Source: Heterodontus francisci
Taxonomy: Eukaryota
Length of the DNA: 64,000 nucleotides
Assembly (NCBI RefSeq): GCF_036365525.1
Contig: NC_090404.1
Span: 4,030,001 to 4,094,000, forward strand
Direction of reading: 5' to 3'
Below the pieces are notes generated by a model that did not search any database, was not told where the DNA came from, and saw nothing but the letters and a program-made list of their open reading frames with translations. The position numbers were made by a program, and so were the translations under genes. Of the stretch, positions 6,290 through 61,712 are shown piece after piece (the first letter of the stretch is position 1; every line of letters starts with the position of its first letter).

Positions 6290-6845
6290 TGATTCAGTGA
6301 GTTCAGTCTGCGAGAGAGGAGAGAGGTTCATTGAGTTCAGTCTGAGCAAGAGGAGAGAGGTTCAGTGCGTTCAGTCTGAGAGGAGAGAAATTCAATGAGT
6401 TCAGTCTGAGACAGTGCAGAGAGGTTCAGTGAGTTCAGTCTGAGAGAGAGGAGATTGATTCAGTGAGTTCAGTCTGACAGAAAGGAGAGAAATTCAATGA
6501 GTTCCGTCTGAGAGACAGGAGAGAGATTCAGTGAGTTCAGTCTGAGAGAGAGGAGAGAGATTCAGTGTGTTCAGTCTGAGAGAGAGGAGAGAGGTTCAGT
6601 GAGTTCAGTCTGAGAGAGAGGGGATAGGTCCAGTGAGTTCACTCTGAGCGAGAGAAGAGAGATTCAGTGAGTTCAGTCTGAAGGAGAGGAGAGAGATTCA
6701 GTGAGTTCAGACTGAGAGAGAGGAGAGAGATTCAGTGAGTTCAGTCTGAGAGAGAGGAGAGAGATTCGGTGAGTTCAGTCTGAGAGAGGAGAGAGCTTCA
6801 GTGACTTCATTGCATCTGAGAGAGAGGTTCAATGAGTTCAGTGAC
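6290..6845. repeat. ~32-bp minisatellite (ttcagtgagttcagtctgagagagaggagagaR), about 17 units
   Basis: Directly visible tandem units. Confidence 0.9.
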
Positions 6846-28720: not shown

Positions 28721-29133
28721 GTGTATTTGTATTTACCTGTCCTGATTTCTCAGTTAAGTATTGGGGGTGACGGGCTGATTCTGGGAGATAGACGTTGGTT
28801 AATTTAATATTGCTCTGTTCTTGCAGGACATTGTCGAGGAGACTCCGTTTCACAGTAACCAGCTGTAATCATAGTAAGTGAAGGAGACGATGTTCGGTTG
28901 CACTGTGATTATACAGCTACAAGCAGCAGCAATCCTTATCTATTCTGGTACCGTCAGTATCCCAGTGGATACATGGAATATCTGCTGCAAAGAAACAAAT
29001 ACAGTGAGGACCGAGAAAGATTTCCAGAGGACCGTTTTTCAGCGGAGCTCGATGATTCGATCCGAACCGTCCCGCTGAAAGAATCTAAAACAGAACTGAC
29101 AGACTCTGCGGTGTACTACTGCACACTGAGACC
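28721..29133 (+). pseudogene. TCR V-alpha/delta pseudogene V3 (leader 28721-28766 starting GTG, V exon 28827-29133)
   Basis: GDSVSQ*PAVIIVSEGDDVRLHCDYTATSSSNPYLFWYRQYP...DRFSAELD...TDSAVYYCTLRP; both canonical Cys and Trp present; single TAA at 28856-28858. Confidence 0.93.
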
Positions 29134-29172
29134 CACAGAGACACAGAGCTGGGCTGATCCTGTACAAAAACT
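29134..29172 (+). other. 23-RSS of V3
   Basis: CACAGAG + 23 nt + ACAAAAACT. Confidence 0.9.
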
Positions 29173-29258: not shown

Positions 29259-32200
29259 TCATTTCCCGGCGGAGCAGCAGGAGAAGGTAGCGACTCTTCG
29301 TTGGGTGAGTGAAGGCATCAGGAGCTGTGTTTTAAAAGTAAGTACTTACTGTTTTACTTACTGTTTTCCTTGTCTTTGAGTTTCTTTTGGCGCCGGAGGA
29401 ACCGGAAGCTGGTCGGCAGCGAGGACTCCTGGGTAGGTATTTTCCTTAAAGGTGCGGAGCTCCGTGGACTCGGCCTCATTTCCCGGCGGAGCAGCAGGAG
29501 AAGGTAGCGACTCTTCGTTGGGTGAGTGAAGGCATCAGGAGCTGTGTTTTACAAGTAAGTACTTACTGTTTTACTTACTGTTTTCCTTGTCTTTGAGTTT
29601 CTTTTGGCGCCGGAGGAACCGGAAGCTGGTCGGCAGCGAGGACTCCTGGGTAGGTATTTTCCTTAAAGGTGCGGAGCTCCGTGGACTCGGCCTCATTTCC
29701 CGGCGGAGCAGCAGGAGAAGGTAGCGACTCTTCGTTGGGTGAGTGAAGGCATCAGGAGCTGTGTTTTAAAAGTAAGTACTTACTGTTTTACTTACTGTTT
29801 TCCTTGTCTTTGAGTTTCTTTTGGCGCCGGAGGAACCGGAAGCTGGTCGGCAGCGAGGACTCCTGGGTAGGTATTTTCCTTAAAGGTGCGGAGCTCCGTG
29901 GACTCGGCCTCATTTCCCGGCGGAGCAGCAGGAGAAGGTAGCGACTCTTCGTTGGGTGAGTGAAGGCATCAGGAGCTGTGTTTTAAAAGTAAGTACTTAC
30001 TGTTTTACTTACTGTTTTCCTTGTCTTTGAGTTTCTTTTGGCGCCGGAGGAACCGGAAGCTGGTCGGCAGCGAGGACTCCTGGGTAGGTATTTTCCTTAA
30101 AGGTGCGGAGCTCCGTGGACTCGGCCTCATTTCCCGGCGGAGCAGCAGGAGAAGGTAGCGACTCTTCGTTGGGTGAGTGAAGGCATCAGGAGCTGTGTTT
30201 TAAAAGTAAGTACTTACTGTTTTACTTACTGTTTTCCTTGTCTTTGAGTTTCTTTTGGCGCCGGAGGAACCGGAAGCTGGTCGGCAGCGAGGACTCCTGG
30301 GTAGGTATTTTCCTTAAAGGTGCGGAGCTCCGTGGACTCGGCCTCATTTCCCGGCGGAGCAGCAGGAGAAGGTAGCGACTCTTCGTTGGGTGAGTGAAGG
30401 CATCAGGAGCTGTGTTTTAAAAGTAAGTACTTACTGTTTTACTTACTGTTTTCCTTGTCTTTGAGTTTCTTTTGGCGCCGGAGGAACCGGAAGCTGGTCG
30501 GCAGCGAGGACTCCTGGGTAGGTATTTTCCTTAAAGGTGCGGAGCTCCGTGGACTCGGCCTCATTTCCCGGCGGAGCAGCAGGAGAAGGTAGCGACTCTT
30601 CGTTGGGTGAGTGAAGGCATCAGGAGCTGTGTTTTAAAAGTAAGTACTTACTGTTTTACTTACTGTTTTCCTTGTCTTTGAGTTTCTTTTGGCGCCGGAG
30701 GAACCGGAAGCTGGTCGGCAGCGAGGACTCCTGGGTAGGTATTTTCCTTAAAGGTGCGGAGCTCCGTGGACTCGGCCTCATTTCCCGGCGGAGCAGCAGG
30801 AGAAGGTAGCGACTCTTCGTTGGGTGAGTGAAGGCATCAGGAGCTGTGTTTTAAAAGTAAGTACTTACTGTTTTACTTACTGTTTTCCTTGTCTTTGAGT
30901 TTCTTTTGGCGCCGGAGGAACCGGAAGCTGGTCGGCAGCGAGGACTCCTGGGTAGGTATTTTCCTTAAAGGTGCGGAGCTCCGTGGACTCGGCCTCATTT
31001 CCCGGCGGAGCAGCAGGAGAAGGTAGCGACTCTTCGTTGGGTGAGTGAAGGCATCAGGAGCTGTGTTTTAAAAGTAAGTACTTACTGTTTTACTTACTGT
31101 TTTCCTTGTCTTTGAGTTTCTTTTGGCGCCGGAGGAACCGGAAGCTGGTCGGCAGCGAGGACTCCTGGGTAGGTATTTTCCTTAAAGGTGCGGAGCTCCG
31201 TGGACTCGGCCTCATTTCCCGGCGGAGCAGCAGGAGAAGGTAGCGACTCTTCGTTGGGTGAGTGAAGGCATCAGGAGCTGTGTTTTAAAAGTAAGTACTT
31301 ACTGTTTTACTTACTGTTTTCCTTGTCTTTGAGTTTCTTTTGGCGCCGGAGGAACCGGAAGCTGGTCGGCAGCGAGGACTCCTGGGTAGGTATTTTCCTT
31401 AAAGGTGCGGAGCTCCGTGGACTCGGCCTCATTTCCCGGCGGAGCAGCAGGAGAAGGTAGCGACTCTTCGTTGGGTGAGTGAAGGCATCAGGAGCTGTGT
31501 TTTAAAAGTAAGTACTTACTGTTTTACTTACTGTTTTCCTTGTCTTTGAGTTTCTTTTGGCGCCGGAGGAACCGGAAGCTGGTCGGCAGCGAGGACTCCT
31601 GGGTAGGTATTTTCCTTAAAGGTGCGGAGCTCCGTGGACTCGGCCTCATTTCCCGGCGGAGCAGCAGGAGAAGGTAGCGACTCTTCGTTGGGTGAGTGAA
31701 GGCATCAGGAGCTGTGTTTTAAAAGTAAGTACTTACTGTTTTACTTACTGTTTTCCTTGTCTTTGAGTTTCTTTTGGCGCCGGAGGAACCGGAAGCTGGT
31801 CGGCAGCGAGGACTCCTGGGTAGGTATTTTCCTTAAAGGTGCGGAGCTCCGTGGACTCGGCCTCATTTCCCGGCGGAGCAGCAGGAGAAGGTAGCGACTC
31901 TTCGTTGGGTGAGTGAAGGCATCAGGAGCTGTGTTTTAAAAGTAAGTACTTACTGTTTTACTTACTGTTTTCCTTGTCTTTGAGTTTCTTTTGGCGCCGG
32001 AGGAACCGGAAGCTGGTCGGCAGCGAGGACTCCTGGGTAGGTATTTTCCTTAAAGGTGCGGAGCTCCGTGGACTCGGCCTCATTTCCCGGCGGAGCAGCA
32101 GGAGAAGGTAGCGACTCTTCGTTGGGTGAGTGAAGGCATCAGGAGCTGTGTTTTAAAAGTAAGTACTTACTGTTTTACTTACTGTTTTCCTTGTCTTTGA

Positions 32201-32933
32201 GTTTCTTTTGGCGCCGGAGGAACCGGAAGCTGGTCGGCAGCGAGGACTCCTGGGTAGGTATTTTCCTTAAAGGTGCGGAGCTCCGTGGACTCGGCCTCAT
32301 TTCCCGGCGGAGCAGCAGGAGAAGGTAGCGACTCTTCGTTGGGTGAGTGAAGGCATCAGGAGCTGTGTTTTAAAAGTAAGTACTTACTGTTTTACTTACT
32401 GTTTTCCTTGTCTTTGAGTTTCTTTTGGCGCCGGAGGAACCGGAAGCTGGTCGGCAGCGAGGACTCCTGGGTAGGTATTTTCCTTAAAGGTGCGGAGCTC
32501 CGTGGACTCGGCCTCATTTCCCGGCGGAGCAGCAGGAGAAGGTAGCGACTCTTCGTTGGGTGAGTGAAGGCATCAGGAGCTGTGTTTTAAAAGTAAGTAC
32601 TTACTGTTTTACTTACTGTTTTCCTTGTCTTTGAGTTTCTTTTGGCGCCGGAGGAACCGGAAGCTGGTCGGCAGCGAGGACTCCTGGGTAGGTATTTTCC
32701 TTAAAGGTGCGGAGCTCCGTGGACTCGGCCTCATTTCCCGGCGGAGCAGCAGGAGAAGGTAGCGACTCTTCGTTGGGTGAGTGAAGGCATCAGGAGCTGT
32801 GTTTTAAAAGTAAGTACTTACTGTTTTACTTACTGTTTTCCTTGTCTTTGAGTTTCTTTTGGCGCCGGAGGAACCGGAAGCTGGTCGGCAGCGAGGACTC
32901 CTGGGTAGGTATTTTCCTTAAAGGTGCGGAGCT
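29259..32933 (+). repeat. 217-bp tandem monomer array (16.9 units) forming the CR1 5' end
   Basis: ATTTCCCGGCGG recurs at 29261, 29478, 29695 ... 32733 (period 217); units almost identical. Confidence 0.98.
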
Positions 32934-33110
32934 GAGTAAACCCGAGCCACTACACATGTAGTGTCTCCCACCCATCCTCCTCCTCTAACCTAATAATAAG
33001 ACCCTTTTTACCCTCCTCCTCTAACCAAAAAGGACTGAGCAGGTAAGCTATTTACTGTTTTTGTTAATATCTATAGTTGTACTTAACTAAGGGGTAATTG
33101 AATAAAAGAA

Positions 33111-34031
33111 ATGGCAGCCAGTGTAGTGTATTGCTCCTCCTGCAGAATGTTCGAGGTGAGGGGAACCTCCGGTGACCCTGCCGACTTCACCTGCTGGAAG
33201 TGCATCCGTCTCCAGCTCCTATCAGACCGTGTTAGGGAATTGGAGCTGGAGCTGGATGAACTGAGGATCATTCGGGAAGCTGAGGGGTTGATAGATAGAA
33301 GCTACACGGAGGTCGTTACTCCACAAATCAAAGGCAGCTGGGTAACAGTTAGAGGTGGGAAGAGGTCAGTGCAGGGATCTCCTGTGGTCGTTCCCCTCAA
33401 CAACAAGTATACAGTTTTAGATACTGTTGGGGGGGACGGCCTATCGGGGGCAGGCTGCAGTGACCGGGCCTCTGGCACGGGGTCCTGCACTGTGGCTCAG
33501 AAGGGAAGGAGGGAGAATGGGAGAGCACTAGTCATCGGGGACTCGATGGTGAGGAGTACGGACAGGCGGTTCTGTGGGCGCAGGCGAGACGCACGGATGG
33601 TTTGTTGCCTCCCTGGTGCCAGGGTCCGTGATGTTTGTGATCGCGTCTTCAGGATCCTTAAAGGGGAGGGGGAGCAGCCAGAGGTCGTGGTGCACATTGG
33701 CACCAACGACGTAGGAAGGAAGGGTGGCACAGATGTTAGAAGTGAGTTTAGGGAGTTAGGCTGGAAGCTGAAAGCTCGGACGGACAGAGTTGTTATCTCT
33801 GGTTTGTTGCCGGCGCCACGTGATAGTGAGGCTAGGAATAGGGAGAGAGCACAGCTGAACACGTGGCTGCAGGAATGGTGTAGGAGGGAGGGCTTCCAGT
33901 TCTTGGATAATTGGACTGCATTCTGGGGAAGATGGGACCTGTTCAAACAGGACGGGCTGCATCTGAACCAGAGGGGCACCAATATCCTGGGAGGGAGGTT
34001 TGCTAGTACTGTTCGGGAGGGTTTAAACTAG
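33111..34031 (+). CDS. CR1 ORF1p (CxxC..CxxC zinc finger, leucine zipper, SGNH-type esterase), 306 aa
   Basis: CSSC/CWKC, LQLLSDRVRELELELDEL, VIGDS, HIGTND, DGLHLN motifs. Confidence 0.95.
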   Translation: MAASVVYCSSCRMFEVRGTSGDPADFTCWKCIRLQLLSDRVRELELELDELRIIREAEGLIDRSYTEVVTPQIKGSWVTVRGGKRSVQGSPVVVPLNNKYTVLDTVGGDGLSGAGCSDRASGTGSCTVAQKGRRENGRALVIGDSMVRSTDRRFCGRRRDARMVCCLPGARVRDVCDRVFRILKGEGEQPEVVVHIGTNDVGRKGGTDVRSEFRELGWKLKARTDRVVISGLLPAPRDSEARNRERAQLNTWLQEWCRREGFQFLDNWTAFWGRWDLFKQDGLHLNQRGTNILGGRFASTVREGLN

Positions 34032-36919
34032 TTTGGGAGGGGGATGGGAACCGGACTTGTAATCCAGGGACCAGTGGGTCCACTCAGAAAGACAAAGAGT
34101 GTAGTGAGGTATTGGGGAAGGTAGCACTGTCACAGAGGACAGATGGGCACGGAGAAGGATTAAAGTGCGTATACTTCAACGCAAGAAGCATCAGGAATAA
34201 GGTGAGTGAATTGAAGGCGTGGATGGGCACTTGGGACTACGATGTTGTGGCCATCACTGAAACGTGGATAGGTGAGGGGGAGGAATGGTTTTTGGAGGTA
34301 CCTGGTTATAGATGTTTTCATAAGATTAGGAATGGTGGTAAAAGAGGTGGGGGGGTGGCATTGTTAGTTAGAAATAGTGTAACAACTGCTGAAAGAATTT
34401 TCGAGGAGGATCTGCCGACTGAGGCACTGTGGGTTGAGGTCAGGAACAGGAAAGGAGCAGTCACCTTGATGGGAGTTTTCTATAGGCCCCCCAATAGCAG
34501 CAGGGAGGTGGAAGAGCAGATTGGGAAACAGATTTTGGAAAGGAGCAGAAGTCACAGGGTAGTAATTATGGGGGATTTCAACTTCCCAAATATTGATTGG
34601 CAACTCTTTAGATCGAATAGTTTGGATGGGGTAGTGTTTGTGCAGTATGTCCAGGAAGCTTTTCTGACTCAGTATGTAGACTGCCCGACCAGAGGGGAGG
34701 CAATATTGGATTTGGTACTAGGTAATGAACCAGGGCAAGTGATAGAGCTGTTGGTGGGCGAGCACTTTGGAGATAGTGATCACAATTCTGTAGCATTCAC
34801 TGTGGTAATGGAGAGGGATAGGTATGTGCAACAGGGCAAGGTTTACAATTGGGGGAAGGGTAGATATGATGCTGTCAGGCAGGAACTGAGGAGCATAAGT
34901 TGGGAGCATATGCTGGCAGGGAAGGGCACGGTCGAAATGTGGAACTTTTTCAAGGAGCAGATAGTAGGGGCCATTGATAAGCATGTCCCTGTCAGACAGG
35001 GAAGGGATGGTCATGTGAGGGAACCGTGGTTGACAAGAGAGGTTGAGAGTCTTGTTAGGAAGAAGGATGCGTATATAAAGTTGAGGAAAAAGGGCACAGG
35101 CATAGCTCTGGAGGGATACAAGATGGCCAGGAAGGATCTGAAGAAAGGGATTAGGAGAGCTAAGAGAGGGCATGAAAAATGCTTGGCGGGTAGGATAAAA
35201 GAAAACCCCAAGGCCTTTTACGCGTATGTCAGAAATATGAGGATGACCAGGGGGACCATAGGTCCGGTCAAGGACAATAGCGGTAGACTGTGTGTTGAGC
35301 CGGAAGAGATAAGTGAGGTTTTGAATGAGTACTTCTCTTCGGTATTTACGAATGAGAAGGGGTGTATTACTGAAGAGGACGGTGTGAAACAGACTGGTAA
35401 GCTCGAGGAAGTGCTCGTTAGGAGGGAAGATGTGTTGCGGTTTTTGAATAACTTGAAGATAGACAAGTCTCCCGGGCCTGACGGGGTATATCCAAGGATG
35501 TTATGGGAAGCAAGGGATGAAATTGCAGAGCCGCTGGCAATGATCTTTTCATCTTCTCTGCTGACGGGGGTGGTACCAGGTGATTGGAGGGTGGCAAATG
35601 TTGTGCCCCTGTTCAAGAAAGGGAATAGGAACAACCCTGGGAATTACAGGCCAGTTAGTCTTACTTCGGTGGTAGGCAAGTTGATGGAAAAGGTGCTGAG
35701 GGATAGGATTTCTGAGCATCTGGAAAGACACTGCTTGATTCGGGACAGTCAGCACGGTTTTGTGAGGGGTAGGTCTTGCCTCACAAGCCTGATTGAATTC
35801 TTTGAGCAGGTGACCAAGCAAGTGGATGAGGGTAAACCAGTGGATGTGGTGTACATGGATTTTAGTAAGGCATTTGATAAGGTCCCCCATGGTAGACTTA
35901 TGGAGAAAGTCAGGAGGCATGGGATAGTGGGGAATGTGGCCAGTTGGATTAAGAATTGGCTAACTGATAGAAGGCAGAGAGTGGTCTTAGATGGTAAATA
36001 CTCAGCCTGGAGCCCAGTTACCAGTGGCGTGCCGCAGGGATCAGTTCTGGGTCCTCTCCTGTTTGTGATTTTTATTAACGACTTGGATGAGGAAGTCGAA
36101 GGGTGGGTCAGTAAATTTGCAGATGATACAAAGGTTGGTGGAGTTGTGGATACCGAGGAGGGCTATTGTCGTCTGCAGGGGGACTTGGATAGGTTGCAGT
36201 GCTGGGCTGAAAAGTGGCAGATGGAGTTTAACCCTGAAAAGTGTGAGGTCGTCCATTTTGGAAGGACAAACATGAATGCAAAATACTGGGTTAACGGTAG
36301 GGTTCTTGGGCATGTGGAGGAGCAGAGAGACCTTGGGGTCTATGTGCATAGATCATTGAAAGTTGCAACTCAAGTGGATAGGGCTGTGAAGAAGGCATAT
36401 GGGGTGTTAGCGTTCATTAGCAGAGGGATTGAATTTAAGAGCCGTGAGGTGATGATGCAGCTGTACAGGACCTTGGTAAGGCCTCATTTGGAGTACTGTG
36501 TGCAGTTCTGGTCGCCTCATTTTAGGAAGGATGTGGAAGCCTTGGAGAGGGTGCAGAGGAGATTTACCAGGATGTTGCCTGGAATGGAGAATAAGTCTTA
36601 CGAGGAAAGGCTGAACATTCTAGGCCTCTTCTCATTAGAAAGGAGAAGGATGAGGGGTGACATGATAGAGGTTTATAAGATGATCAGGGGAATAGATAGG
36701 GTAGACAGTCAGAAACTTTTTCCCCGGGTGGAGCAAAGCGTTACAAGGGGTCATAAATTTAAGGTGAAGGGTGGGAGATATAAGGGGGATGTCAGGGGAA
36801 GGTTCTTTACCCAGAGAGTGGTCGAGGCATGGAATGCCTTGCCCGGGGAAGTTGTTGAGTCAGAAACTTTAGGGACTTTCAAAAGGCTTTTGGATAGGTA
36901 TATGGATAAAGGAGAATGA
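34028..36919 (+). CDS. CR1 ORF2p (APE endonuclease + reverse transcriptase); frame open from 34007, no AUG before 34223
   Basis: CVYFNARS, ITETW, GDFN, SDH (APE); [32 protein letters not shown] (RT); no stops. Confidence 0.95.
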   Translation, partial: LVWEGDGNRTCNPGTSGSTQKDKECSEVLGKVALSQRTDGHGEGLKCVYFNARSIRNKVSELKAWMGTWDYDVVAITETWIGEGEEWFLEVPGYRCFHKIRNGGKRGGGVALLVRNSVTTAERIFEEDLPTEALWVEVRNRKGAVTLMGVFYRPPNSSREVEEQIGKQILERSRSHRVVIMGDFNFPNIDWQLFRSNSLDGVVFVQYVQEAFLTQYVDCPTRGEAILDLVLGNEPGQVIELLVGEHFGDSDHNSVAFTVVMERDRYVQQGKVYNWGKGRYDAVRQELRSISWEHMLAGKGTVEMWNFFKEQIVGAIDKHVPVRQGRDGHVREPWLTREVESLVRKKDAYIKLRKKGTGIALEGYKMARKDLKKGIRRAKRGHEKCLAGRIKENPKAFYAYVRNMRMTRGTIGPVKDNSGRLCVEPEEISEVLNEYFSSVFTNEKGCITEEDGVKQTGKLEEVLVRREDVLRFLNNLKIDKSPGPDGVYPRMLWEARDEIAEPLAMIFSSSLLTGVVPGDWRVANVVPLFKKGNRNNPGNYRPVSLTSVVGKLMEKVLRDRISEHLERHCLIRDSQHGFVRGRSCLTSLIEFFEQVTKQVDEGKPVDVVYMDFSKAFDKVPHGRLMEKVRRHGIVGNVASWIKNWLTDRRQRVVLDGKYSAWSPVTSGVPQGSVLGPLLFVIFINDLDEEVEGWVSKFADDTKVGGVVDTEEGYCRLQGDLDRLQCWAEKWQMEFNPEKCEVVHFGRTNMNAKYWVNGRVLGHVEEQRDLGVYVHRSLKVATQVDRAVKKAYGVLAFISRGIEFKSREVMMQLYRTLVRPHLEYCVQFWSPHFRKDVEALERVQRRFTRMLPGMENKSYEERLNILGLFSLERRRMRGDMIEVYKMIRGIDRVDSQKLFPRVEQSVTRGHKFKVKGGRYKGDVRGRFFTQRVVEAWNALPGEVVESETLGTFKRLLDRYMDKGE

Positions 36920-37000
36920 TGGGGTATAGATTAAATTGTCCTTGACAGAGGACAAAGGATCGGCACAACATTCTGGGCCGAAGGGCCTGTTCTGTGCTGT

Positions 37001-37296
37001 ATGTTCTATGTTCTATGTTCTATGTTCTATGTTCTATGTTCTATGTTCTATGTTCTATGTTCTATGTTCTATGTTCTATGTTCTATGTTCTATGTTCTAT
37101 GTTCTATGTTCTATGTTCTATGTTCTATGTTCTATGTTCTATGTTCTATGTTCTATGTTCTATGTTCTATGTTCTATGTTCTATGTTCTATGTTCTATGT
37201 TCTATGTTCTATGTTCTATGTTCTATGTTCTATGTTCTATGTTCTATGTTCTATGTTCTATGTTCTATGTTCTATGTTCTATGTTCTATGTTCTAT
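37001..37296 (+). repeat. (ATGTTCT)n CR1 3' tail, about 42 units
   Basis: Perfect 7-mer microsatellite following the CR1 3' UTR. Confidence 0.98.
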
Positions 37297-48100: not shown

Positions 48101-50240
48101 AAGAACAAGAGGGTAGCAAGGGTAAGGGTTGGCCCACTCAAGGACAGAGGAGGAAATCTATGCGTGGAGCCTGAGGAAGTGTGCGAGGTACTAAATGAGT
48201 ACTTTGTATCAGTATTCACCCAAGAGAAGGACTTGGTGGATGATGAGGCCGGGGAAGGGAGTGTAGATAGTCTGGGTCATGTCGATATCAAAAAGGAGGA
48301 GCTGTTGGGTGTCTTGAAAAACATTAAGATCGAGATGTCCCCAGGGCGTGATGGGATCTACTACCCCAGAATACTGAGGGAGGCAAGGGAGGAAATTGCT
48401 GGAGCCTTGACTGAAGTCTTTGTATCCTCATTGGCGACAGGTGAGATCCCAGAGGAGAGGAAAATAGCCAATGTTGTTCCTTTGTTTAAGAAGGGTGGTA
48501 AGGATAATCCAGGAAATTAGAGGCCGGTGAGCCTTCCGTCAGTGGTAGGGAAATTATAAGAGAGGATTCTTCGGGACAGAATTTATTCCCATTTGGAAAC
48601 AAATGGACTTATTAGCAAGAGGCAGCTTGGTTTTGTGAAAGAGAGGTCGTGTCTCACTAACTTGATCGTGTTGTTTGAGGAAGTGACGAAGATGATTGAT
48701 GAAGGAAGGGCAGTGGAAGTTGTCTACATGGACTTAAGTAAAGCCTTTGACAAGGTCCTTCATGGCAGATTGGTACAAAAGGTGAAGTTACACGGGATCA
48801 GAGGTGAGCTGGCAAGATGGATGCAGAACTGGCTCGGTCAAAGAAGTCAGAGGGTAGCAGTGGAAGGGTGCTTTTCTGAATGGAGGACTGTGACTAATGG
48901 TGTTTTGCAGGGATCAGCGCTGGGACCTTTGCTGTTTGCAGTATATGTAAATGATTTGGAGGAAAATGTAGCAGGTCTGATTAGTAAGTTTGCGGATGAC
49001 ACAAAGGTTGGTGGAGTTGAGAATAGTGATGAGGATTGTCAGAGGATGCAGCAGGATATAGATCGGTTGGAGACATAGGCAGAGAAATGGCAGTTGGAGT
49101 TTAATCCGGACAAATGTGAGGTAATGCATTTTGGAAGGTCTAATACAAGTGGGAAGTATACAGTAATGGCAGAACCCTTAGGAGTATTGACAGGCAGAGA
49201 GATCTGGGCGTACAGGTCCAAAGATCACTGAAAGTGGCAAAGCAGGTGGATAAGGTAGTCAAGAAGGCATATGGCATGCTTGCCTTCATCGGTTGGGGCA
49301 TAGAGTATAAAAATTGGCAAGTCATGCTGCAGCTGTACAGAACCTTAGTTAGGCCACACTTGGAATATTGCATACAATTCTGGTCGCCATACCACCAGAA
49401 GCATATGGAGGCTTTGGAGAGGGTACAGAAGAGGTTTACCAGGATGTGGCCTGGTCAGGAGGGTATTAGCTGCCAGGAGAGGTTGGATAAACTCGAATTG
49501 CTTTCACTGGAACGACAAGGTGGAGGGGTGACATGATAGAGGTTTACAAAGTTATGTGTTGCATGGGCAGAGTGCTTAGTCGGAAGGTTTTTCCCAGGGT
49601 GGAAGAGTCAGTTACTAGACGACATAGGTTTAAGGTGCGAGGGGCAAAGTTTAAAGGGGATGTTTCCCGGCGGAGCAGCAGGAGAAGGTAGCGACTCTTC
49701 GGTGGGTGAGTGAAGGCATCAGGAGCTGTGTTTTAAAAGTAAGTACTTACTGTTTTACTTACTGTTTTCCTTGTCTTTGAGTTTCTTTTGGCGCCGGAGG
49801 AACCGGAAGCTGGTCGGCAGCGAGGACTCCTGGGTAGGTATTTTCCTTAAAGGTGCGGAGCTCCGTGGACTCGGCCTCATTTCCCGGCGGAGCAGCAGGA
49901 GAAGGTAGCGACTCTTCGGTGGGTGAGTGAAGGCATCAGGAGCTGTGTTTTAAAAGTAAGTACTTACTGTTTTACTTACTGTTTTCCTTGTCTTTGAGTT
50001 TCTTTTGGCGCTGGTCGGCAGCGAGGACTCCTGGGTAGGTATTTTCCTCAAAGGTGCGGAGCTGAGTAAACCCGAGCCACTACACATGTAGTGTCTCCCA
50101 CCCATCCTCCTCCTCTAACCTAATAATAAGACCCTTTTTACCCTCCTCCTCTAACCAAAAAGGACTGAACAGGTAAGCTATTTACTGTTTTTGTTAATAT
50201 CTATAGTTGTACTTAACTAAGGGGTAATTGAATAAAAGAA

Positions 50241-51161
50241 ATGGCAGCCAGTGTAGTGTATTGCTCCTCCTGCAGAATGTTCGAGGTGAGGGAAACCTCC
50301 GGTGGCCCTGCCGACTTCACCTGCTGGAAGTGCATCCGTCTCCAGCTCCTATCAGACCGTGTTAGGGAATTGGAGCTGGAGCTGGATGAACTGAGGATCA
50401 TTCGGGAAGCTGAGGGGTTGATAGATAGAAGCTACACGGAGGTCGTTACTCCACAAATCAAAGGCAGCTGGGTAACAGTTAGAGGTGGGAAGAGGTCAGT
50501 GCAGGGATCTCCTGTGGTCGTTCCCCTCAACAACAAGTATACAGTTTTAGATACTGTTGGGGGGGACGGCCTATCGGGGGCAGGCTGCAGTGACCGGGCC
50601 TCTGGCACGGGGTCCTGCACTGTGGCTCAGAAGGGAAGGAGGGAGAATGGGAGAGCACTAGTCATCGGGGACTCGATGGTGAGGAGTACGGACAGGCGGT
50701 TCTGTGGGCGCAGGCGAGACGCACGGATGGTTTGTTGCCTCCCTGGTGCCAGGGTCCGTGATGTTTGTGATCGCGTCTTCATGATCCTTAAAGGGGAGGG
50801 GGAGCAGCCAGAGGTCGTGGTGCACATTGGCACCAACGACGTAGGAAGGAAGGGTGGCACAGATGTTAGAAGTGAGTTTAGGGAGTTAGGCTGGAAGCTG
50901 AAAGCTCGGACGGACAGAGTTGTTATCTCTGGTTTGTTGCCGGCGCCACGTGATAGTGAGGCTAGGAATAGGGAGAGAGCACAGCTGAACACGTGGCTGC
51001 AGGAATGGTGTAGGAGGGAGGGCTTCCAGTTCTTGGATAATTGGACTGCATTCTGGGGAAGATGGGACCTGTTCAAACAGGACGGGCTGCATCTGAACCA
51101 GAGGGGCACCAATATCCTGGGAGGGAGGTTTGCTAGTACTGTTCGGGAGGGTTTAAACTAG
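50241..51161 (+). CDS. CR1 ORF1p (copy B), 306 aa
   Basis: Three amino-acid differences from copy A ORF1. Confidence 0.93.
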   Translation: MAASVVYCSSCRMFEVRETSGGPADFTCWKCIRLQLLSDRVRELELELDELRIIREAEGLIDRSYTEVVTPQIKGSWVTVRGGKRSVQGSPVVVPLNNKYTVLDTVGGDGLSGAGCSDRASGTGSCTVAQKGRRENGRALVIGDSMVRSTDRRFCGRRRDARMVCCLPGARVRDVCDRVFMILKGEGEQPEVVVHIGTNDVGRKGGTDVRSEFRELGWKLKARTDRVVISGLLPAPRDSEARNRERAQLNTWLQEWCRREGFQFLDNWTAFWGRWDLFKQDGLHLNQRGTNILGGRFASTVREGLN

Positions 51162-54054
51162 TTTGGGAGGGGGATGGGAACCGGACTTGTAATCCAGGGA
51201 CCAGTGGGTCCACTCAGAAAGACAAAGAGTGTAGTGAGGTATTGGGGAAGGTAGCACTGTCACAGAGGACAGATGGGCACGGAGAAGGGTTAAAGTGCGT
51301 ATACTTCAACGCAAGAAGCATCAGGAATAAGGTGAGTGAATTGAAGGCGTGGATGGGCACTTGGGACTACGATGTTGTGGCCATCACTGAAACGTGGATA
51401 GGTGAGGGGGAGGAATGGTTTTTGGAGGTACCTGGTTATAGATGTTTTCATAAGATTAGGAATGGTGGTAAAAGAGGTGGGGGGGGGTGGCATTGTTAGT
51501 TAGAAATAGTGTAACAACTGCTGAAAGAATTTTCGAGGAGGATCTGCCGACTGAGGCACTGTGGGTTGAGGTCAGGAACAGGAAAGGAGCAGTCACCTTG
51601 ATGGGAGTTTTCTATAGGCCCCCCAATAGCAGCAGGGAGGTGGAAGAGCAGATTGGGAAACAGATTTTGGAAAGGAGCAGAAGTCACAGGGTAGTAATTA
51701 TGGGGGATTTCAACTTCCCAAATATTGATTGGCAACTCTTTAGATCGAATAGTTTGGATGGGGTAGTGTTTGTGCAGTATGTCCAGGAAGCTTTTCTGAC
51801 TCAGTATGTAGACTGCCCGACCAGAGGGGAGGCAATATTGGATTTGGTACTAGGTAATGAACCAGGGCAAGTGATAGAGCTGTTGGTGGGCGAGCACTTT
51901 GGAGATAGTGATCACAATTCTGTAGCATTCACTGTGGTAATGGAGAGGGATAGGTATGTGCAACAGGGCAAGGTTTACAATTGGGGGAAGGGTAGATATG
52001 ATGCTGTCAGGCAGGAACTGAGGAGCATAAGTTGGGAGCATATGCTGGCAGGGAAGGGCACGGTCGAAATGTGGAACTTTTTCAAGGAGCAGATAGTAGG
52101 GGCCATTGATAAGCATGTCCCTGTCAGACAGGGAAGGGATGGTCATGTGAGGGAACCGTGGTTGACAAGAGAGGTTGAGAGTCTTGTTAGGAAGAAGAAG
52201 GATGCGTATATAAAGTTGAGGAAAAAGGGCACAGGCATAGCTCTGGAGGGATACAAGATGGCCAGGAAGGATCTGAAGAAAGGGATTAGGAGAGCTAAGA
52301 GAGGGCATGAAAAATGCTTGGCGGGTAGGATAAAAGAAAACCCCAAGGCCTTTTACGCGTATGTCAGAAATATGAGGATGACTAGGGGGACCGTAGGTCC
52401 GGTCAAGGACAATAGCGGGAGACTGTGTGTTGAGCCGGAAGAGATAAGTGAGGTTTTGAATGAGTACTTCTCTTCGGTATTTACGAATGAGAAGGGGTGT
52501 ATTACTGAAGAGGACGGTGTGAAACAGACTGGTAAGCTCGAGGAAGTGCTCGTTAGGAGGGAAGATGTGTTGCGGTTTTTGAATAACTTGAAGATAGACA
52601 AGTCTCCCGGGCCTGACGGGGTATATCCAAGGATGTTATGGGAAGCAAGGGATGAAATTGCAGAGCCGCTGGCAATGATCTTTTCATCTTCTCTGCTGAC
52701 GGGGGTGGTACCAGGTGATTGGAGGGTGGCAAATGTTGTGCCCCTGTTCAAGAAAGGGAATAGGAACAACCCTGGGAATTACAGGCCAGTTAGTCTTACT
52801 TCGGTGGTAGGCAAGTTGATGGAAAAGGTGCTGAGGGATAGGATTTCTGAGCATCTGGAAAGACACTGCTTGATTCGGGACAGTCAGCACGGTTTTGTGA
52901 GGGGTAGGTCTTGCCTCACAAGCCTGATTGAATTCTTTGAGCAGGTGACCAAGCAAGTGGATGAGGGTAAACCAGTGGATGTGGTGTACATGGATTTTAG
53001 TAAGGCATTTGATAAGGTCCCCCATGGTAGACTTATGGAGAAAGTCAGGAGGCATGGGATAGTGGGGAATGTGGCCAGTTGGATTAAGAATTGGCTAACT
53101 GATAGAAGGCAGAGAGTGGTCTTAGATGGTAAATACTCAGCCTGGAGCCCAGTTACCAGTGGCGTGCCGCAGGGATCAGTTCTAGGTCCTCTCCTGTTTG
53201 TGATTTTTATTAACGACTTGGATGAGGAAGTCGAAGGGTGGGTCAGTAAATTTGCAGATGATACAAAGGTTGGTGGAGTTGTGGATACCGAGGAGGGCTA
53301 TTGTCGTCTGCAAAGGGACTTGGATAGGTTGCAGTGCTGGGCTGAAAAGTGGCAGATGGAGTTTAACCCTGAAAAGTGTGAGGTCGTCCATTTTGGAAGG
53401 ACAAACATGAATGCAAAATACTGGGTTAACGGTAGGGTTCTTGGGCATGTGGAGGAGCAGAGAGACCTTGGGGTCTATGTGCATAGATCATTGAAAGTTG
53501 CAACTCAAGTGGATAGGGCTGTGAAGAAGGCATATGGGGTGTTAGCGTTCATTAGCAGAGGGATTGAATTTAAGAGCCGTGAGGTGATGATGCAGCTGTA
53601 CAGGACCTTGGTAAGGCCTCATTTGGAGTACTGTGTGCAGTTCTGGTCGCCTCATTTTAGGAAGGATGTGGAAGCCTTGGAGAGGGTGCAGAGGAGATTT
53701 ACCAGGATGTTGCCTGGAATGGAGAATAAGTCTTACGAGGAAAGGCTGAACATTCTAGGCCTCTTCTCATTAGAAAGGAGAAGGATGAGGGGTGACATGA
53801 TAGAGGTTTATAAGATGATCAGGGGAATAGATAGGGTAGACAGTCAGAAACTTTTTCCCCGGGTGGAGCAAAGCGTTACAAGGGGTCATAAATTTAAGGT
53901 GAAGGGTGGGAGATATAAGGGGGATGTCAGGGGAAGGTTCTTTACCCAGAGAGTGGTCGAGGCATGGAATGCCTTGCCCGGGGAAGTTGTTGAGTCAGAA
54001 ACTTTAGGGACTTTCAAAAGGCTTTTGGATAGGTATATGGATAAAGGAGAATGA
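51158..54054 (+). pseudogene. CR1 ORF2 (copy B) with a +2 G frameshift in a homopolymer at about 51479-51487
   Basis: G9 here versus G7 in copy A; otherwise open; could be a sequencing error. Confidence 0.85.
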
Positions 54055-55535
54055 TGGGGTATAGATTAAATTGTCCTTGACAGAGGACAAAGGATCGGCA
54101 CAACATTGTGGGCCGAAGGGCCTGTTCTGTGCTGTATGTTCTATGTTCTATGTTCTATGTTCTATGTTCTATGATGTGCGAGGCAAACTCTTTACACAGA
54201 GGGTGGTGAGTGCCTGGAACCTGCTGCCGGGGGAGGTGGTGGAAGCAGGTACGATAGTGACGTTGAAGAGGCATCTTGACAAATGCACTAATAGGATGGG
54301 AATAGAGGGATACGGTCCCCGGATGTGCAGAAGGTTTTAGTTTAGACAAGCATTGTTCATTTTTCTTTGAATTGTGCCTCCTTCTTTGTCTAATAGGCTT
54401 CAGGATCAGGAAGTCATTCCCAGGGGTTGTCCTCTCTGATGTATTCGATAGTCCCTTGAATGTGGGCTCCCTGTTGTGGAAAATGGACCCCAGGCTCTTG
54501 GGATAATTCCCAGCATTTATTCTTAATGGTCTATCGTTCCAGATATTCATTAGTCTTGAGGAATCATTCCCAGGGTTTATTGTCTCTCGTGTCTGTGTTA
54601 TATTTCTAACCTGGTCAGTGCCTGCCCTGGGAGCGTTTGCTGGTGCAGTGTAGAGGGAGCTTTACTGTGTATCTAACCCGGGCTGTGCCTGCCCTGAGAG
54701 TGTGTTTTGCGGCAGTGTGAAGGGAGCTGTCCTCTGCATTATCCCGTAAACTACCTATCCTGGGAGTGTTTGATGGACAGTATTCTTTCATATACTACAC
54801 TGCTCTTTAATGCAACCTGGCACCTGACTGTGACAGACCATGGGAGGTGCTCCTCTTCGCTGTGCGGCCATTCCGACCCTGGGCATTGGCATTTTGAGGC
54901 AGAAGGAAAGGTGGCTATATTCTGATGAGCCACTGGATGGCACAGCAGCACCATCACCGAAAGACTTTTGGTTCAAACACAAACCAGACAGGACTGGTGG
55001 AAAACAGCTGTCAGGAAAAGGGAAAATGTGTAATCGGTAAAATGGAGCGTGTGAATGGGCCTTGGAGCAGGGAATTGAGCAAAGTCAAGTTAGTCCATTT
55101 GTTACTCAAGATTTATTCACAATTTCAAAAAAAACATTTTACAGAAACATTTTTAAAGGGTCCAAAGTGAATTTAGCACCTGTGAGTCACATTGAGGACA
55201 AAACACATGCGATCTGAGCTGTAGACTACTTCTAAAATTGTTACAGATCAGAGAGAAAACAGGGGCTCAACATAAAGAGAAGGAAACAGTTGCAAATAAG
55301 GGATAGTTATTTATTTACAGATGAAATTCAAACTATTGTGAAACTCGAAGGTGCATAGACATTATCGGTAAGATTATCTGACACAATTCAAAGAGAAAAA
55401 CGGAAACAATGTTTATGATCTTCTCAGCTACAGATTCTGAACCATAAACTGACGGCAATTTACTTTTACAGTTTGTTTGATAATGCAGAGATGTTAAAAA
55501 ATAAGGAAAATCCAGGGCGGCCGAAATTCGATCGA

Positions 55536-58607: not shown

Positions 58608-59002
58608 TCATTGACATGAATTAACGGTGTCCAACAGTGCAAGGGAAATGTTCACAAAACTCGGTTTACCGCTGGATTTATTAACTGTTCTGTTGATGAT
58701 CTTCAAGGGGATCGCTTCATGTCCCACCACACAGGAGTAAGAAGCGCCGCTGGCCCACTCCTCCGCTGCAATGGATAACAGGCTGTAGATGAAGAAGGAG
58801 CTATTGTCGTTCTCCGCCATCACCTCGGTGTTCTTGTAGTTGCCGGGATTCACCGACTTGTCATTGACAGTCCACTTGACGAAGATCTCTCGGGGGGAGA
58901 AACCTCGCACTAAGCAGGTGAGGGAGAGGAACCTCTCAGCGGAGACTTCTTCTGCTGGGGGCAGGAGAACAGACACAGACGGTTCCCGCAGATCTTTCCA
59001 TG
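58608..59002 (-). CDS. IGHM: IgM CH4 + secretory tailpiece (internal donor for the membrane form after 58670)
   Basis: ttttcag|(A)[15 protein letters not shown]...[10 protein letters not shown]...[15 protein letters not shown]...[22 protein letters not shown]; NIS glycan site, penultimate Cys, G|GTAAA donor. Confidence 0.97.
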
Positions 59003-59472
59003 CTGAAAAATTAAAATAAATGTCAATAAACTGGACAATTTCAGAGACAATGACACCGGTTGTTAAATGTGAGAGAAATTGTGAAGGTTTTCCTTTTCCT
59101 CTCTGGGGCCTGTGCTGTTTTCCAGCTGGCGCAGAGGCGCTGCAATCCTGCTCGCCGAGAACATAAAGGATTTGACTGGAAAATTACATAGAACTTGCAG
59201 CACAGGAGCAGGCCATTAGGACGAGCTAGCCTCTGCTGGTGTTTATGCTGCACACGGACCTCCTCCCACCTTACTTCAGCTCTTTCTATTCCTTTCTCCA
59301 TAATCTACGTATCTAGCATCACCTGAAATGCATCACCTCTGGCCCCAGGGAGGTTCAATAGTGAATTACAATTAAATTATCAGCGTAATCCATTCAACCA
59401 CTTAATTGGGCCTTGCACAAACACCGGCAAGAAGCACAACCTCTGACTTATTGCTTCAATCACATTGCTCAC

Positions 59473-59778
59473 CTTCCTTGTGGATGGAATCTCTGAGAGG
59501 AGTCGGCAGATCCTGATGGCTCACCACACAGTAGAACACAGCCTCACTCAGCCAGGCTTGTGTCGAGATGTCTACAGTGCTGATCACGCTATCAGGATCC
59601 TCTCCGGGTTGGACGGCAATCTCTGATTTCAAAGGCTTCTGTTCTTGTGTCCAGGACACGTTGACACCATAAGGAGCATTAGACACGACGCAGGTTAAGG
59701 TGACCGTCGCCTCCAGTAAGACCTGTTCTATTGATGGTGGCAGTAGTTTAATTACTGGATGATTGCACTCGGAAGAAT
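59473..59778 (-). CDS. IGHM: IgM CH3 exon
   Basis: ctacag|(D)[15 protein letters not shown]...LTCVVS...[22 protein letters not shown]|gtgag; 306 nt, phase 1. Confidence 0.96.
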
Positions 59779-60284
59779 CTGTAGAACAGAAATGAGAGTC
59801 AAAGAAATCTCCATCTTCAGGATCAGGACGCGAGTATTTAACTATCACTTTCTTCAGGAGGGGAAAAACACCTTTCACTTCAACACTGTCGTTCATGGGA
59901 AGGGCAACGATTTGTAAAATCTGGGACATCCAAGCGGATCACATCTCTGCTGAATATAATGGCTCTGTCACCCGAGGACATGAGCTACACATGAAATTCA
60001 TACTGGCTCAAAACGAATGAAATTACGAATTTTAGGACCAACTGGAAACAAAGTTAATGTTCTGGTGCCTTGTCAGTATATTTGGGGAGATGAAAATGTT
60101 CAGCAACCAGTCAGAGGAGGGGCGAAAGGTCGGTAAAATGCAGTCCCAAGGTTTTTGCTTTTGTGTGGTGAGGAATAATTCGCAATACTGGACGAGATAG
60201 TTTTCTAATATCTGCCACGAGTGAGTATTTCTCATGTGTCCGCCTGGAGATAGAAGGCGATCTGACCACAGGACTGTAATAAGA

Positions 60285-60820
60285 GCATAAGAATAAGAGT
60301 GGGCCATTCAGCCCCTCGAGCACGTTCCGCCATTCAATTACACGATGGCTGAATTGTATCTTAATTCTGTTTACCCATATATAACCCTTAATACCCTTAC
60401 CTGTCAGAAATCTATCACTCGCAACATTAAAGTTTTCAATGGATGTCAAGCTTCTAAAGTGAGTTGGGGGTGAGAATTCCAGATTACCGCTATCTACTGT
60501 GTGAATACTCCCTTCATGATATCATTCCTGAATGACCATGGTCTAATCTGAAGGTTATGCCCCCTGGTTCTGAAGTTCCTCACCAGAGGAAATATTTTTC
60601 TCCATTGACTCCATCAATTCCAGTAAACATCTTAACCACCTCAATTAGATCACACTTTAATCTTCTATACTCAAAGCAATACCAGTTTGGCCTGTGAAAC
60701 CTGTCCTCATAACTTAACCCGATCAGCCCCGTTATCATTATGGTCAATTCTTGTTCCACCACTCCCAAGGCCAATACATTCTTCCTGTGCTCTGCAGTCC
60801 AGAATTGAACACAGTTTTCT
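60285..60820 (-). mobile_element. Decayed CR1 3' fragment in the CH2-CH3 intron
   Basis: LENCVQFW...SYEDRF...DLIEV. Confidence 0.75.
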
Positions 60821-61182
60821 AAAGAGGGTAGATGCTCTTTCTGGCACCTGATTCCGAGGCCGTTACCAAGAAAGGGTTCCAGATGCCGATTGCTGCTCCG
60901 TGTATGATTAGCCCATTCAGGAGAAAGCTGATATGCAGGCCACCTCACTCACTATATGACATCACAGTAGAGCTAAACATTCTTTCATGATGTGATGACA
61001 TGTTGAACCGTGAGCAATCCTAATTTCTAATTTCTAAATCCTAAACTCACAGCGAAATGACACATAAAAACTGCACGATGGCGATTTAGAAATTGTTCTT
61101 TGTACAAACTCCAATAAATTCCTGACTTTCAGTAACATGGAGTACAGAAAGATGTGGAGTTTCCTGGGACTGTGCCTCTTAC

Positions 61183-61500
61183 CTGGAGATCCGGTGATGT
61201 TTCGGCTTTGGGTGACCGCTTGATGGGAGACCTGGCAGGTATAGACCGTGTTGGTGAACCATTCCCGAGCGGGGACTGTCAGCCGACTGGTCGCTGAGAA
61301 GTTCCCGTTCGTTTCACAGGCGGGAGAGGTGACGAAGCCCGATTCCATGGGATGTCCATCCTTCAACCAACTCACGGTTATTGCTTCTGGATGGAAATCG
61401 ATGATTGAACACACGACAGTCGCAAATCTGCTGCTTCTGATTTCTTCACTGGAAGTCTGGGTGAGGATAACAGTTGGATGGACGATGTCACCTTTACAAT
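61183..61500 (-). CDS. IGHM: IgM CH2 exon
   Basis: ttgaag|(D)[14 protein letters not shown]...[20 protein letters not shown]...[21 protein letters not shown]|gtaag; 318 nt. Confidence 0.96.
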
Positions 61501-61712
61501 CTTCAAGAAAAAACATGTTAGACATTTCTAGAAGAACTTAATAACTAATACAAACTGTTCTGATATTTTAACAGGTGATTTGCATCAAGCAGGCACTAAC
61601 TGATGTTTCCAGGGGTCTGAACTGTGCACAACACTCTAAATGTGGAATAGCCAAAGTTCTACACAAGATCCTTCTCGCTTTTCTGTTTTTCCACAGTTTC
61701 CACAACACTAAC

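Follow-up and report, generated by a model that had tools for sequence, protein, structure and literature searches.

A shark CR1 element with a 5´ array of 217-bp units laid out like the monomer-plus-tether promoters of mouse L1

The window analysed here, a 64,000-nt stretch of the Heterodontus francisci genome (NC_090404.1, positions 4,030,001 to 4,094,000, forward strand), contains two copies of a CR1 element, denoted A and B. IgM-like constant exons and a TCR-alpha-like V segment also lie in the window. The features of copy A, in window coordinates, are as follows:

29259..32933, + strand: 5´ array of copy A, 16.9 head-to-tail units of 217 bp, with one SNP and with T at unit position 43 throughout
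29259..29265, + strand: Initiator-like TCATTTC at the 5´ junction of copy A, recurring at the start of each unit
29337..29350, no strand assigned: perfect palindrome, present in each unit, containing the 5´ splice-donor-like GTAAGT and its inverted complement
29402..29408, + strand: ETS-type CCGGAAG at unit position 144, 77 nt upstream of the Initiator A of the next unit
32934..33110, + strand: non-repeated tether of 177 bp between the array and ORF1
32944..32967, + strand: tether hairpin (z = -2.8), within a module (~32937-32990) common to other CR1 families
33111..34031, + strand: ORF1, 306 aa, with N-terminal Cys pairs and an SGNH esterase
34007..36919, + strand: ORF2 open frame with APE endonuclease and reverse transcriptase (RT), first ATG not before 34223
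34022..34028, + strand: TTTAAAC heptamer directly before the ORF1 stop, with ORF2 in the -1 frame
36920..37296, + strand: short structured 3´ UTR and (TGTTCTA)44 tail, the tail at 36988-37296 (309 bp, unusually long)

As judged from its sequence, with an esterase ORF1, an APE-RT ORF2 and a microsatellite tail, the element was confirmed as an intact CR1. Both this identity and the monomer-plus-tether layout had been proposed in an earlier, sequence-only reading of this DNA, and were borne out by the ORF domains, the tail and the 177-bp tether that separates the array from ORF1. In Pfam, ORF1 matched Lipase_GDSL_2 (E 5.9e-14), and ORF2 matched Exo_endo_phos (E 5.5e-17) and RVT_1 (E 4.9e-36); ORF1 is also related to the ORF1 esterase of PDB entry 4C1B (E 2.8e-26). 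Homologues of ORF1 were found in sharks, rays, coelacanth, frogs and turtles. The closest named homologues are those of sharks and rays (69% to Mustelus and Stegostoma), with the exception of the top match (91%), which is labelled Pseudomonas, lies on a 4-kb contig and probably represents contamination; locus searches based on ORF1 found no relative in metagenome, viral or prokaryote genome contigs. A folded 3´ UTR followed by a (TGTTCTA)n tail, with no poly(A), is present in both copies. For copy A, no target-site duplication of 3 nt or more was seen, and no paralogous empty site was found in the window. The tether and the start of ORF1 match published shark consensi classed as CR1, and L2 elements are reported to be absent from galeomorph sharks and, in chondrichthyans, to be without ORF1 (PMC13343379).

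TRF analysis of the copy A array (period 217, 16.9 copies, 29259-32933) and comparison of the individual units both confirmed the earlier description of 16.9 CpG-rich 217-bp monomers running directly into a unique 5´ UTR. Of the 16 full units, unit 2 alone departs from the other 15, which are identical, by a single SNP at position 77; identity among the units is 99.97%, and unit 17 stops at unit position 203. The unit is 51.5% GC, contains no ATG and carries 12 CpGs, with an observed/expected ratio of 0.87 vs 0.46 for the window; the tether is CpG-poor (0.16), in contrast to the CpG-rich units. Within the unit, TCATTTC is the sole sense-strand match to the Initiator (Inr) consensus YYANWYY, in keeping with the Inr fit claimed previously, and it is also one mismatch away from a TCT-type motif. 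A chance Inr match is frequent, occurring in 71% of random units, and the ETS motif is expected in 2%. We found no match to YY1, TATA, GC-box or DPE at the expected place in the unit, and the search for a YY1 site found neither GCCATNTT nor CCAT in the unit. When the unit motif was searched in metagenome contigs, 0 matches were obtained.

Copy B carries far fewer units and is closely similar to copy A over the rest of its length:

49663..50063, + strand: 5´ units of copy B, 1.9 units, starting at unit position 4-5, with G43 in both
50064..54173, + strand: body of copy B, with 12 substitutions and 2 indels relative to copy A in about 4.06 kb

The ~1.9 monomers that had been noted for this copy were found at 49663-50063 as described, and the unit/tether junction falls at the same base in copies A and B. 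The accompanying claim that each monomer carries an ETS/GABP-type motif did not hold for the last unit of copy B, from which a 16-bp deletion has removed it. The two copies thus differ in unit number (16.9 vs 1.9), and they differ at position 43, which is T in 17/17 units of copy A and G in both units of copy B. A 2-bp insertion near 51479 puts ORF2 of copy B out of frame, its tail has 7 units, and its host site is an older CR1, with a target-site duplication of 3-5 nt (49660-49662 / 54174-54176). Upstream of the older CR1 at 45974 we observed one diverged duplication with a 66-bp period, in which no similarity to the 217-bp unit was detected.

We then compared the phase of the insertion 5´ ends, using contigs of four public runs (X1, X3, X4 and X8) aligned to one unit plus the tether. 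Copy A begins at unit position 1, or at up to position 3 if its first letters belong to the flank, and the previous observation that copies A and B start within ~4 nt of each other was confirmed; the chance probability for two such junctions within 4 nt is 0.042, which is suggestive only. A third 5´ junction was detected in an X3 contig, where at least 255 foreign letters, unlike the flanks of A and B, are joined at 32730, corresponding to unit position 217/1. All seven partly aligned X3 records were listed, and this was the single long foreign 5´ join within the unit. For X4, the deepest run, the loose ends listed cover 41 of the 77 partly aligned records, and off-phase junctions may lie among the others; one diverged X4 contig was clipped at 32706, too close to the edge for classing. 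Insertion 5´ ends therefore fall within 5 nt in 3/3 readable junctions, a small sample in which X4 is only partly listed, and chance would give three junctions within 5 nt with a probability of ~0.002 under uniform breakpoints (n=3).

These three junctions bracket the sole sense-strand Inr match of the unit. The precise transcription start that had been proposed at this Initiator was not established, given that the junctions lie at 217/1, 1 and 4-5 and that two of the three include bases 5´ of the Inr A (position 3). A start zone that is narrow and rich in pyrimidines would explain these positions as well as microhomology would: transcription may begin at a pyrimidine rather than at the Inr A, or its start may be blurred by microhomology, which is often used in LINE 5´ joins (PMC4245944). 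X3 is considered RNA by guess only, and its contigs show neither start nor strand.

Head-to-tail unit junctions were present in contigs of 4/4 runs examined, which carry two organism labels. The unit-to-exit depth ratios were 2.8 (X1), 1.9-3.2 (X8) and 2.9 (X3), and ~5.7 for X4, where the ratio was calculated from site depths; contig depth is not copy number, and these ratios are rough. In X4, peaks of summed depth stem from overlapping contigs and from other families, and we derive no start step from them. Read in this rough way, the ratios suggest about 2-3 units per element, which resembles the 3-4 monomers of young mouse L1 (PMC9022269), and about 6 in one run, and the 17 units are therefore an outlier of copy A, atypical of the family. 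The earlier remark that a 3.7-kb array is very long thus stands for this one copy and does not extend to the family. Loose contig ends at 32937-32940 and at 32990 indicate that other abundant families share the tether hairpin module with a different sequence upstream, so that the unit/tether boundary is also a module boundary.

Taken together, phased 5´ ends, CpG-rich units, a single Inr match and unit arrays in related consensi (see below) support a reading of the array as an internal Pol II promoter of the monomer-plus-tether type, convergent with that of mouse L1, and we regard this as probable. Each unit would be an internal Pol II promoter with transcription starting at the first bases of the unit, and the ETS site and other upstream sequence would come from the preceding unit. 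Since a transcript begun in unit n would carry all downstream units, a full-length insertion would begin at a unit start and would retain a working promoter. In this way monomer promoters solve the loss of the promoter that a LINE incurs when it is copied from its own RNA. A start in an inner unit would lose units, however, and arrays would consequently have to regrow by duplication, which for copy A could have occurred by unequal exchange or slippage in DNA, or by the RT re-copying the 5´ unit.

An alternative, which we consider unlikely, is that the units are a satellite-like expansion of the 5´ UTR without a promoter role, with the promoter in the tether or outside and the common phase due to chance or microhomology. 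The copy A array is indeed a recent expansion of one unit, and the part conserved across families is the tether module, but the tether is CpG-poor (o/e 0.16) while the units are CpG-rich, and a promoter internal to the tether would leave the units uncopied in new insertions. Known junctions number three only, and microhomology is often used in LINE 5´ joins (PMC4245944), yet three junctions within 5 nt have a p of about 0.002 on this account. In addition, depth ratios of ~2-6 units per tether are hard to reconcile with large satellite blocks standing apart from the element in the runs examined.

The internal-promoter reading requires that arrays grow, and copy A provides evidence of growth. 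T43 makes up ~3% of the X4 depth and was not seen at that site in the other three runs. All 17 copy A units share this rare allele, supporting recent growth of the array from one founder unit, and only one private SNP is found among the units vs 5.4 expected at the age of the A/B split (P=0.028). In mouse L1, monomers have been suggested to be gained either by unequal crossing-over or by expansion while the cDNA is being made (PMC6454616). Re-copying of the 5´ unit by the RT, in the manner of 3´ microsatellite lengthening, would explain both the 17 head units and the 44-unit tail, since growth of this kind would give one young copy with both near-identical units and a long tail. The homogeneity of copy A and its very long tail may reflect such RT-driven growth, but expansion in situ of an initially short array is just as good a fit.

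Could the 16.9-unit length of copy A be an assembly artefact in a family that truly has 2-3-unit promoters? This possibility, in which only the length is at issue, appears quite unlikely to us. The units are 99.97% identical, no contig spans the array, the depth ratios point to 2-6 units per element, and copy A also carries an unusually long 309-bp tail, all of which would be in line with misassembly. Long arrays do exist in mouse, however, where young L1 elements have 3-4 monomers on average and more than 10 at 7/5765 loci (PMC9022269), and where one array of 50 monomers has been described (PMC6454616). That 50-mer is heterogeneous, in contrast to the homogeneous 17-mer here. A private SNP is also retained in unit 2, and the rare T43 runs through the whole array, where a collapsed consensus would have shown the commonest allele; this argues against such an artefact.

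Very improbable is the explanation that RNA processing at the unit boundary (self-cleavage, a nuclease cut or an RT stop) produces the phased 5´ ends: self-cleaving 5´ ends occur in some non-LTR elements and the first 54 nt of the unit can form a long hairpin from position 1, but shuffled sequences fold about as stably as this hairpin (z -0.67 in copy A and -0.32 in copy B), Rfam returned no ribozyme match and three lncRNA matches far below thresholds, and a cut in every unit would reduce a 17-unit transcript to one unit. With no Rfam match near threshold and ordinary hairpin z-scores, a ribozyme or structured-RNA reading of the unit was rejected.

Related elements were surveyed by eye in 60 CR1 consensi, over the first 400 characters of each; the 60 are a non-random selection from a 1,004-row supplementary table (PMC13343379); the edges of consensi depend on the pipeline used, and many of the 60 begin inside an ORF. 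Clear head-to-tail 5´ units were seen in 8/60. Among shark consensi with an intact tether module, units were clear by eye in 4/8, partial in 2/8 and not visible in 2/8, and the clear units of the tether-sharing consensi are about 70, 90, 100 and 130 bp long and differ in sequence. Four consensi, three from whale shark and one from stingray, appear by eye to start with a pyrimidine tract at the unit boundary, and those of whale shark follow a GGCC or GCCTCC context that resembles the present unit; three other consensi with units (two from dogfish, one from catshark) lack such a start. Four short unit or tether motifs were absent from the first 400 characters of the published consensi. Across sharks, different units thus appear to be attached to a conserved hairpin tether, as are the promoter types of mouse L1. 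A further proposal, that a shark and ray CR1 clade swaps promoter units on the hairpin tether and that its own RT regrows the array in a single insertion, strikes us as possible though rather unlikely.

The 5´ UTR promoters of mouse L1Md A, Tf and Gf are of the monomer-plus-tether type (PMC5381506, PMC6454616, PMC9022269, PMC10620060). As in these elements, head-to-tail CpG-rich units of about 200 bp are followed by a non-repeated tether and then ORF1, and unit number is variable (mouse mean about 3) with rare very long arrays; the three junctions readable here suggest the clustering of insertion 5´ ends at a single unit position that is seen in mouse. Unlike mouse L1, the present element belongs to the CR1 clade, with an esterase ORF1, a microsatellite tail and target-site duplications of 0-5 nt; of the features of the L1 clade, namely an L1-type ORF1, poly(A) and a duplication of about 15 nt, none was found, the duplication being 3-5 nt in B and none being seen in A. 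The units described here also differ from those of mouse in holding splice-donor motifs with their inverted complement and, compared with Tf and Gf, in having no YY1 site at the unit start, the start zone being Inr/TCT-like. YY1 is not universal in mouse, where type A L1 starts near an AP-1 site (PMC6454616). Promoter activity has been demonstrated for mouse L1 and is predicted for the present element.

Among CR1-group elements, a 2026 paper describes in its Fig. 4 legend some ORF1(-) LINEs that carry, close to the 5´ UTR, 1-5 tandem subunits, 100-500 bp long and specific to the species (PMC13343379); the subunits are assigned no function there, and promoter, monomer and tandem have 0 occurrences in the main text. 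The element described here differs from these in being ORF1(+), with up to 17 units and phased 5´ ends. It shares with canonical vertebrate CR1 (chicken CR1-B/F, turtle, shark) the esterase ORF1, the APE-RT ORF2, the hairpin 3´ UTR and the microsatellite tail, the tail unit being 7 nt here vs an octamer in amniote CR1. Differing CR1 5´ UTRs were reportedly described by Haas in 2001. CR1 5´ UTRs function as promoters in reporter assays and differ between subfamilies (PMC4316615, PMC2734521); chicken CR1-B has a single ~240-bp 5´ UTR with E boxes, and for turtle and pufferfish CR1 only a 32-bp direct repeat is reported (PMC2734521). Another non-LTR element, Dictyostelium TRE5-A, has a 200-bp 5´ module with promoter activity, the A-module (PMC3159450). 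TRE5-A differs in belonging to an unrelated clade and in targeting tRNA genes. Its A-modules occur in tandem copies. A literature search by title and start of abstract, with Repbase entries and most subscription papers outside its scope, found no monomer promoters in ORF1-bearing CR1.

Promoters built of monomers have been regarded as peculiar to mouse L1 (PMC6454616). The CR1 group accounts for 22-34% of elasmobranch genomes (PMC13343379), and the exact 5´ UTRs of CR1 are described as hard to reconstruct (PMC4316615). If a second such system has arisen independently in vertebrates, its very young, allele-marked arrays would permit array growth to be tested directly, and a shark system would show whether the turnover of promoters occurs only in mammals, as proposed for L1.

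Finally, we noted hints of splicing near the 3´ end of the tether, at two sites:

33040..33048, + strand: splice donor CAG/GTAAGC, exactly where an X3 contig (RNA by guess) exits the element
33051..33076, + strand: acceptor-like pyrimidine tract and AG, 34 nt before the ORF1 ATG, with an X3 contig starting at the AG

An intron inside each unit was considered and rejected, as no such joint was present in the four runs, where the listed joints are two unrelated skips only. Three runs from the organism labelled B, likewise RNA by guess, contained next to none of the element's words. The X3 contig that starts at the AG upstream of ORF1 is a weak hint of acceptor use. X3 has no cover over 33043-33074, a 34-nt GT...AG stretch across which no contig joins; as an intron this would be very short, and we regard it as a hint only. 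The X3 contig that leaves the element at the donor (depth 142) matches the element exactly over 32961-33042 and continues for ~1.4 kb into other sequence, which was not found in the window; the CAG/GTAAGC exit is one of two AG/GTRAG sites in the 701 bases aligned. This exit would fit splicing of a sense-strand transcript from a 5´ end of this type, and CR1 5´ ends of this kind could serve host sequence as alternative first exons.

A further feature of the CR1 copy with 16.9 units of the 217-bp repeat (copy A) is the junction between ORF1, encoding an esterase-type protein, and ORF2, encoding the endonuclease and reverse transcriptase. The end of ORF1 carries the heptamer TTTAAAC, as do the ORF1 ends at three further sites in the window:

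34022–34031, TTTAAAC with a stop, at the ORF1 end
51152, TTTAAAC with a stop
46885, TTTAAAC
10404, minus strand, TTTAAAC with a stop

At 46885, in an older copy, the heptamer is kept and the stop is lost. The −1 frame is open for ORF2, with no ATG upstream of the ORF2 endonuclease motif. A Leu-Asn C-terminus was present in 81 of 120 ORF1 homologues, from sharks to turtles and frogs, and in 76 of the 85 that carry the C-terminal motif. U_UUA_AAC ranks with the most shift-prone −1 sites (PMC5009743). Programmed −1 frameshifting, for which our literature search found no description at such a junction, is likely at the ORF1/ORF2 junction.

Upstream of ORF1, contigs from public sequencing runs were aligned to one unit and the tether, the non-repeated stretch between array and ORF1. 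In runs X1 and X8, contig depth, which is distinct from copy number, was 3–5 times greater in ORF1 past ~33176 than at the exit from unit to tether, suggesting that, in most elements carrying a copy A-type ORF1, the 5´ end differs or is truncated. One part of the tether and a palindrome in the unit also stood out:

32937–32990, hairpin and CT-rich module
29337–29350, recurring in each unit, splice-donor-like GTAAGT with its own inverted complement

Summed depth of the hairpin module was far above that of the remaining tether in run X4. The module is common to many CR1 families, and among published families the stems, compared by eye, diverge in sequence while retaining pairing. For GTAAGT and its inverted complement, the predicted fold gives pairing probabilities of 0.6–0.99; the pair could mask the donor, or could form a two-strand protein or U1 site. 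Several shark CR1 consensi from the literature, read by eye, likewise show a donor at their 5´ ends with an inverted copy after it.

CR1 sequence also appears in gene models (proteins P0088, P0090 and P0030). Ray models labelled TMEM204 isoforms start with CR1 ORF1 sequence and continue with other sequence, and the whole ORF1 corresponds to one model labelled an RPS24 isoform. Host genes may use CR1 5´ parts as alternative exons.

The copy A insertion point lies 86 nt downstream of a V segment, and other features were noted in the window:

28859–29172, V segment of TCR-alpha/delta-like type, interrupted early by an in-frame stop
29134–29172, its recombination signal, with a 23-bp spacer
58731–61525, minus strand, three Ig C1-set exons
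6291–6827, 34-bp tandem array

The Ig exons lie ~30 kb from the V segment on the opposite strand; the one of the three that was searched best matched IgM heavy constant chains. The 34-bp array (15.9 copies, 84% identity) is an unrelated repeat.
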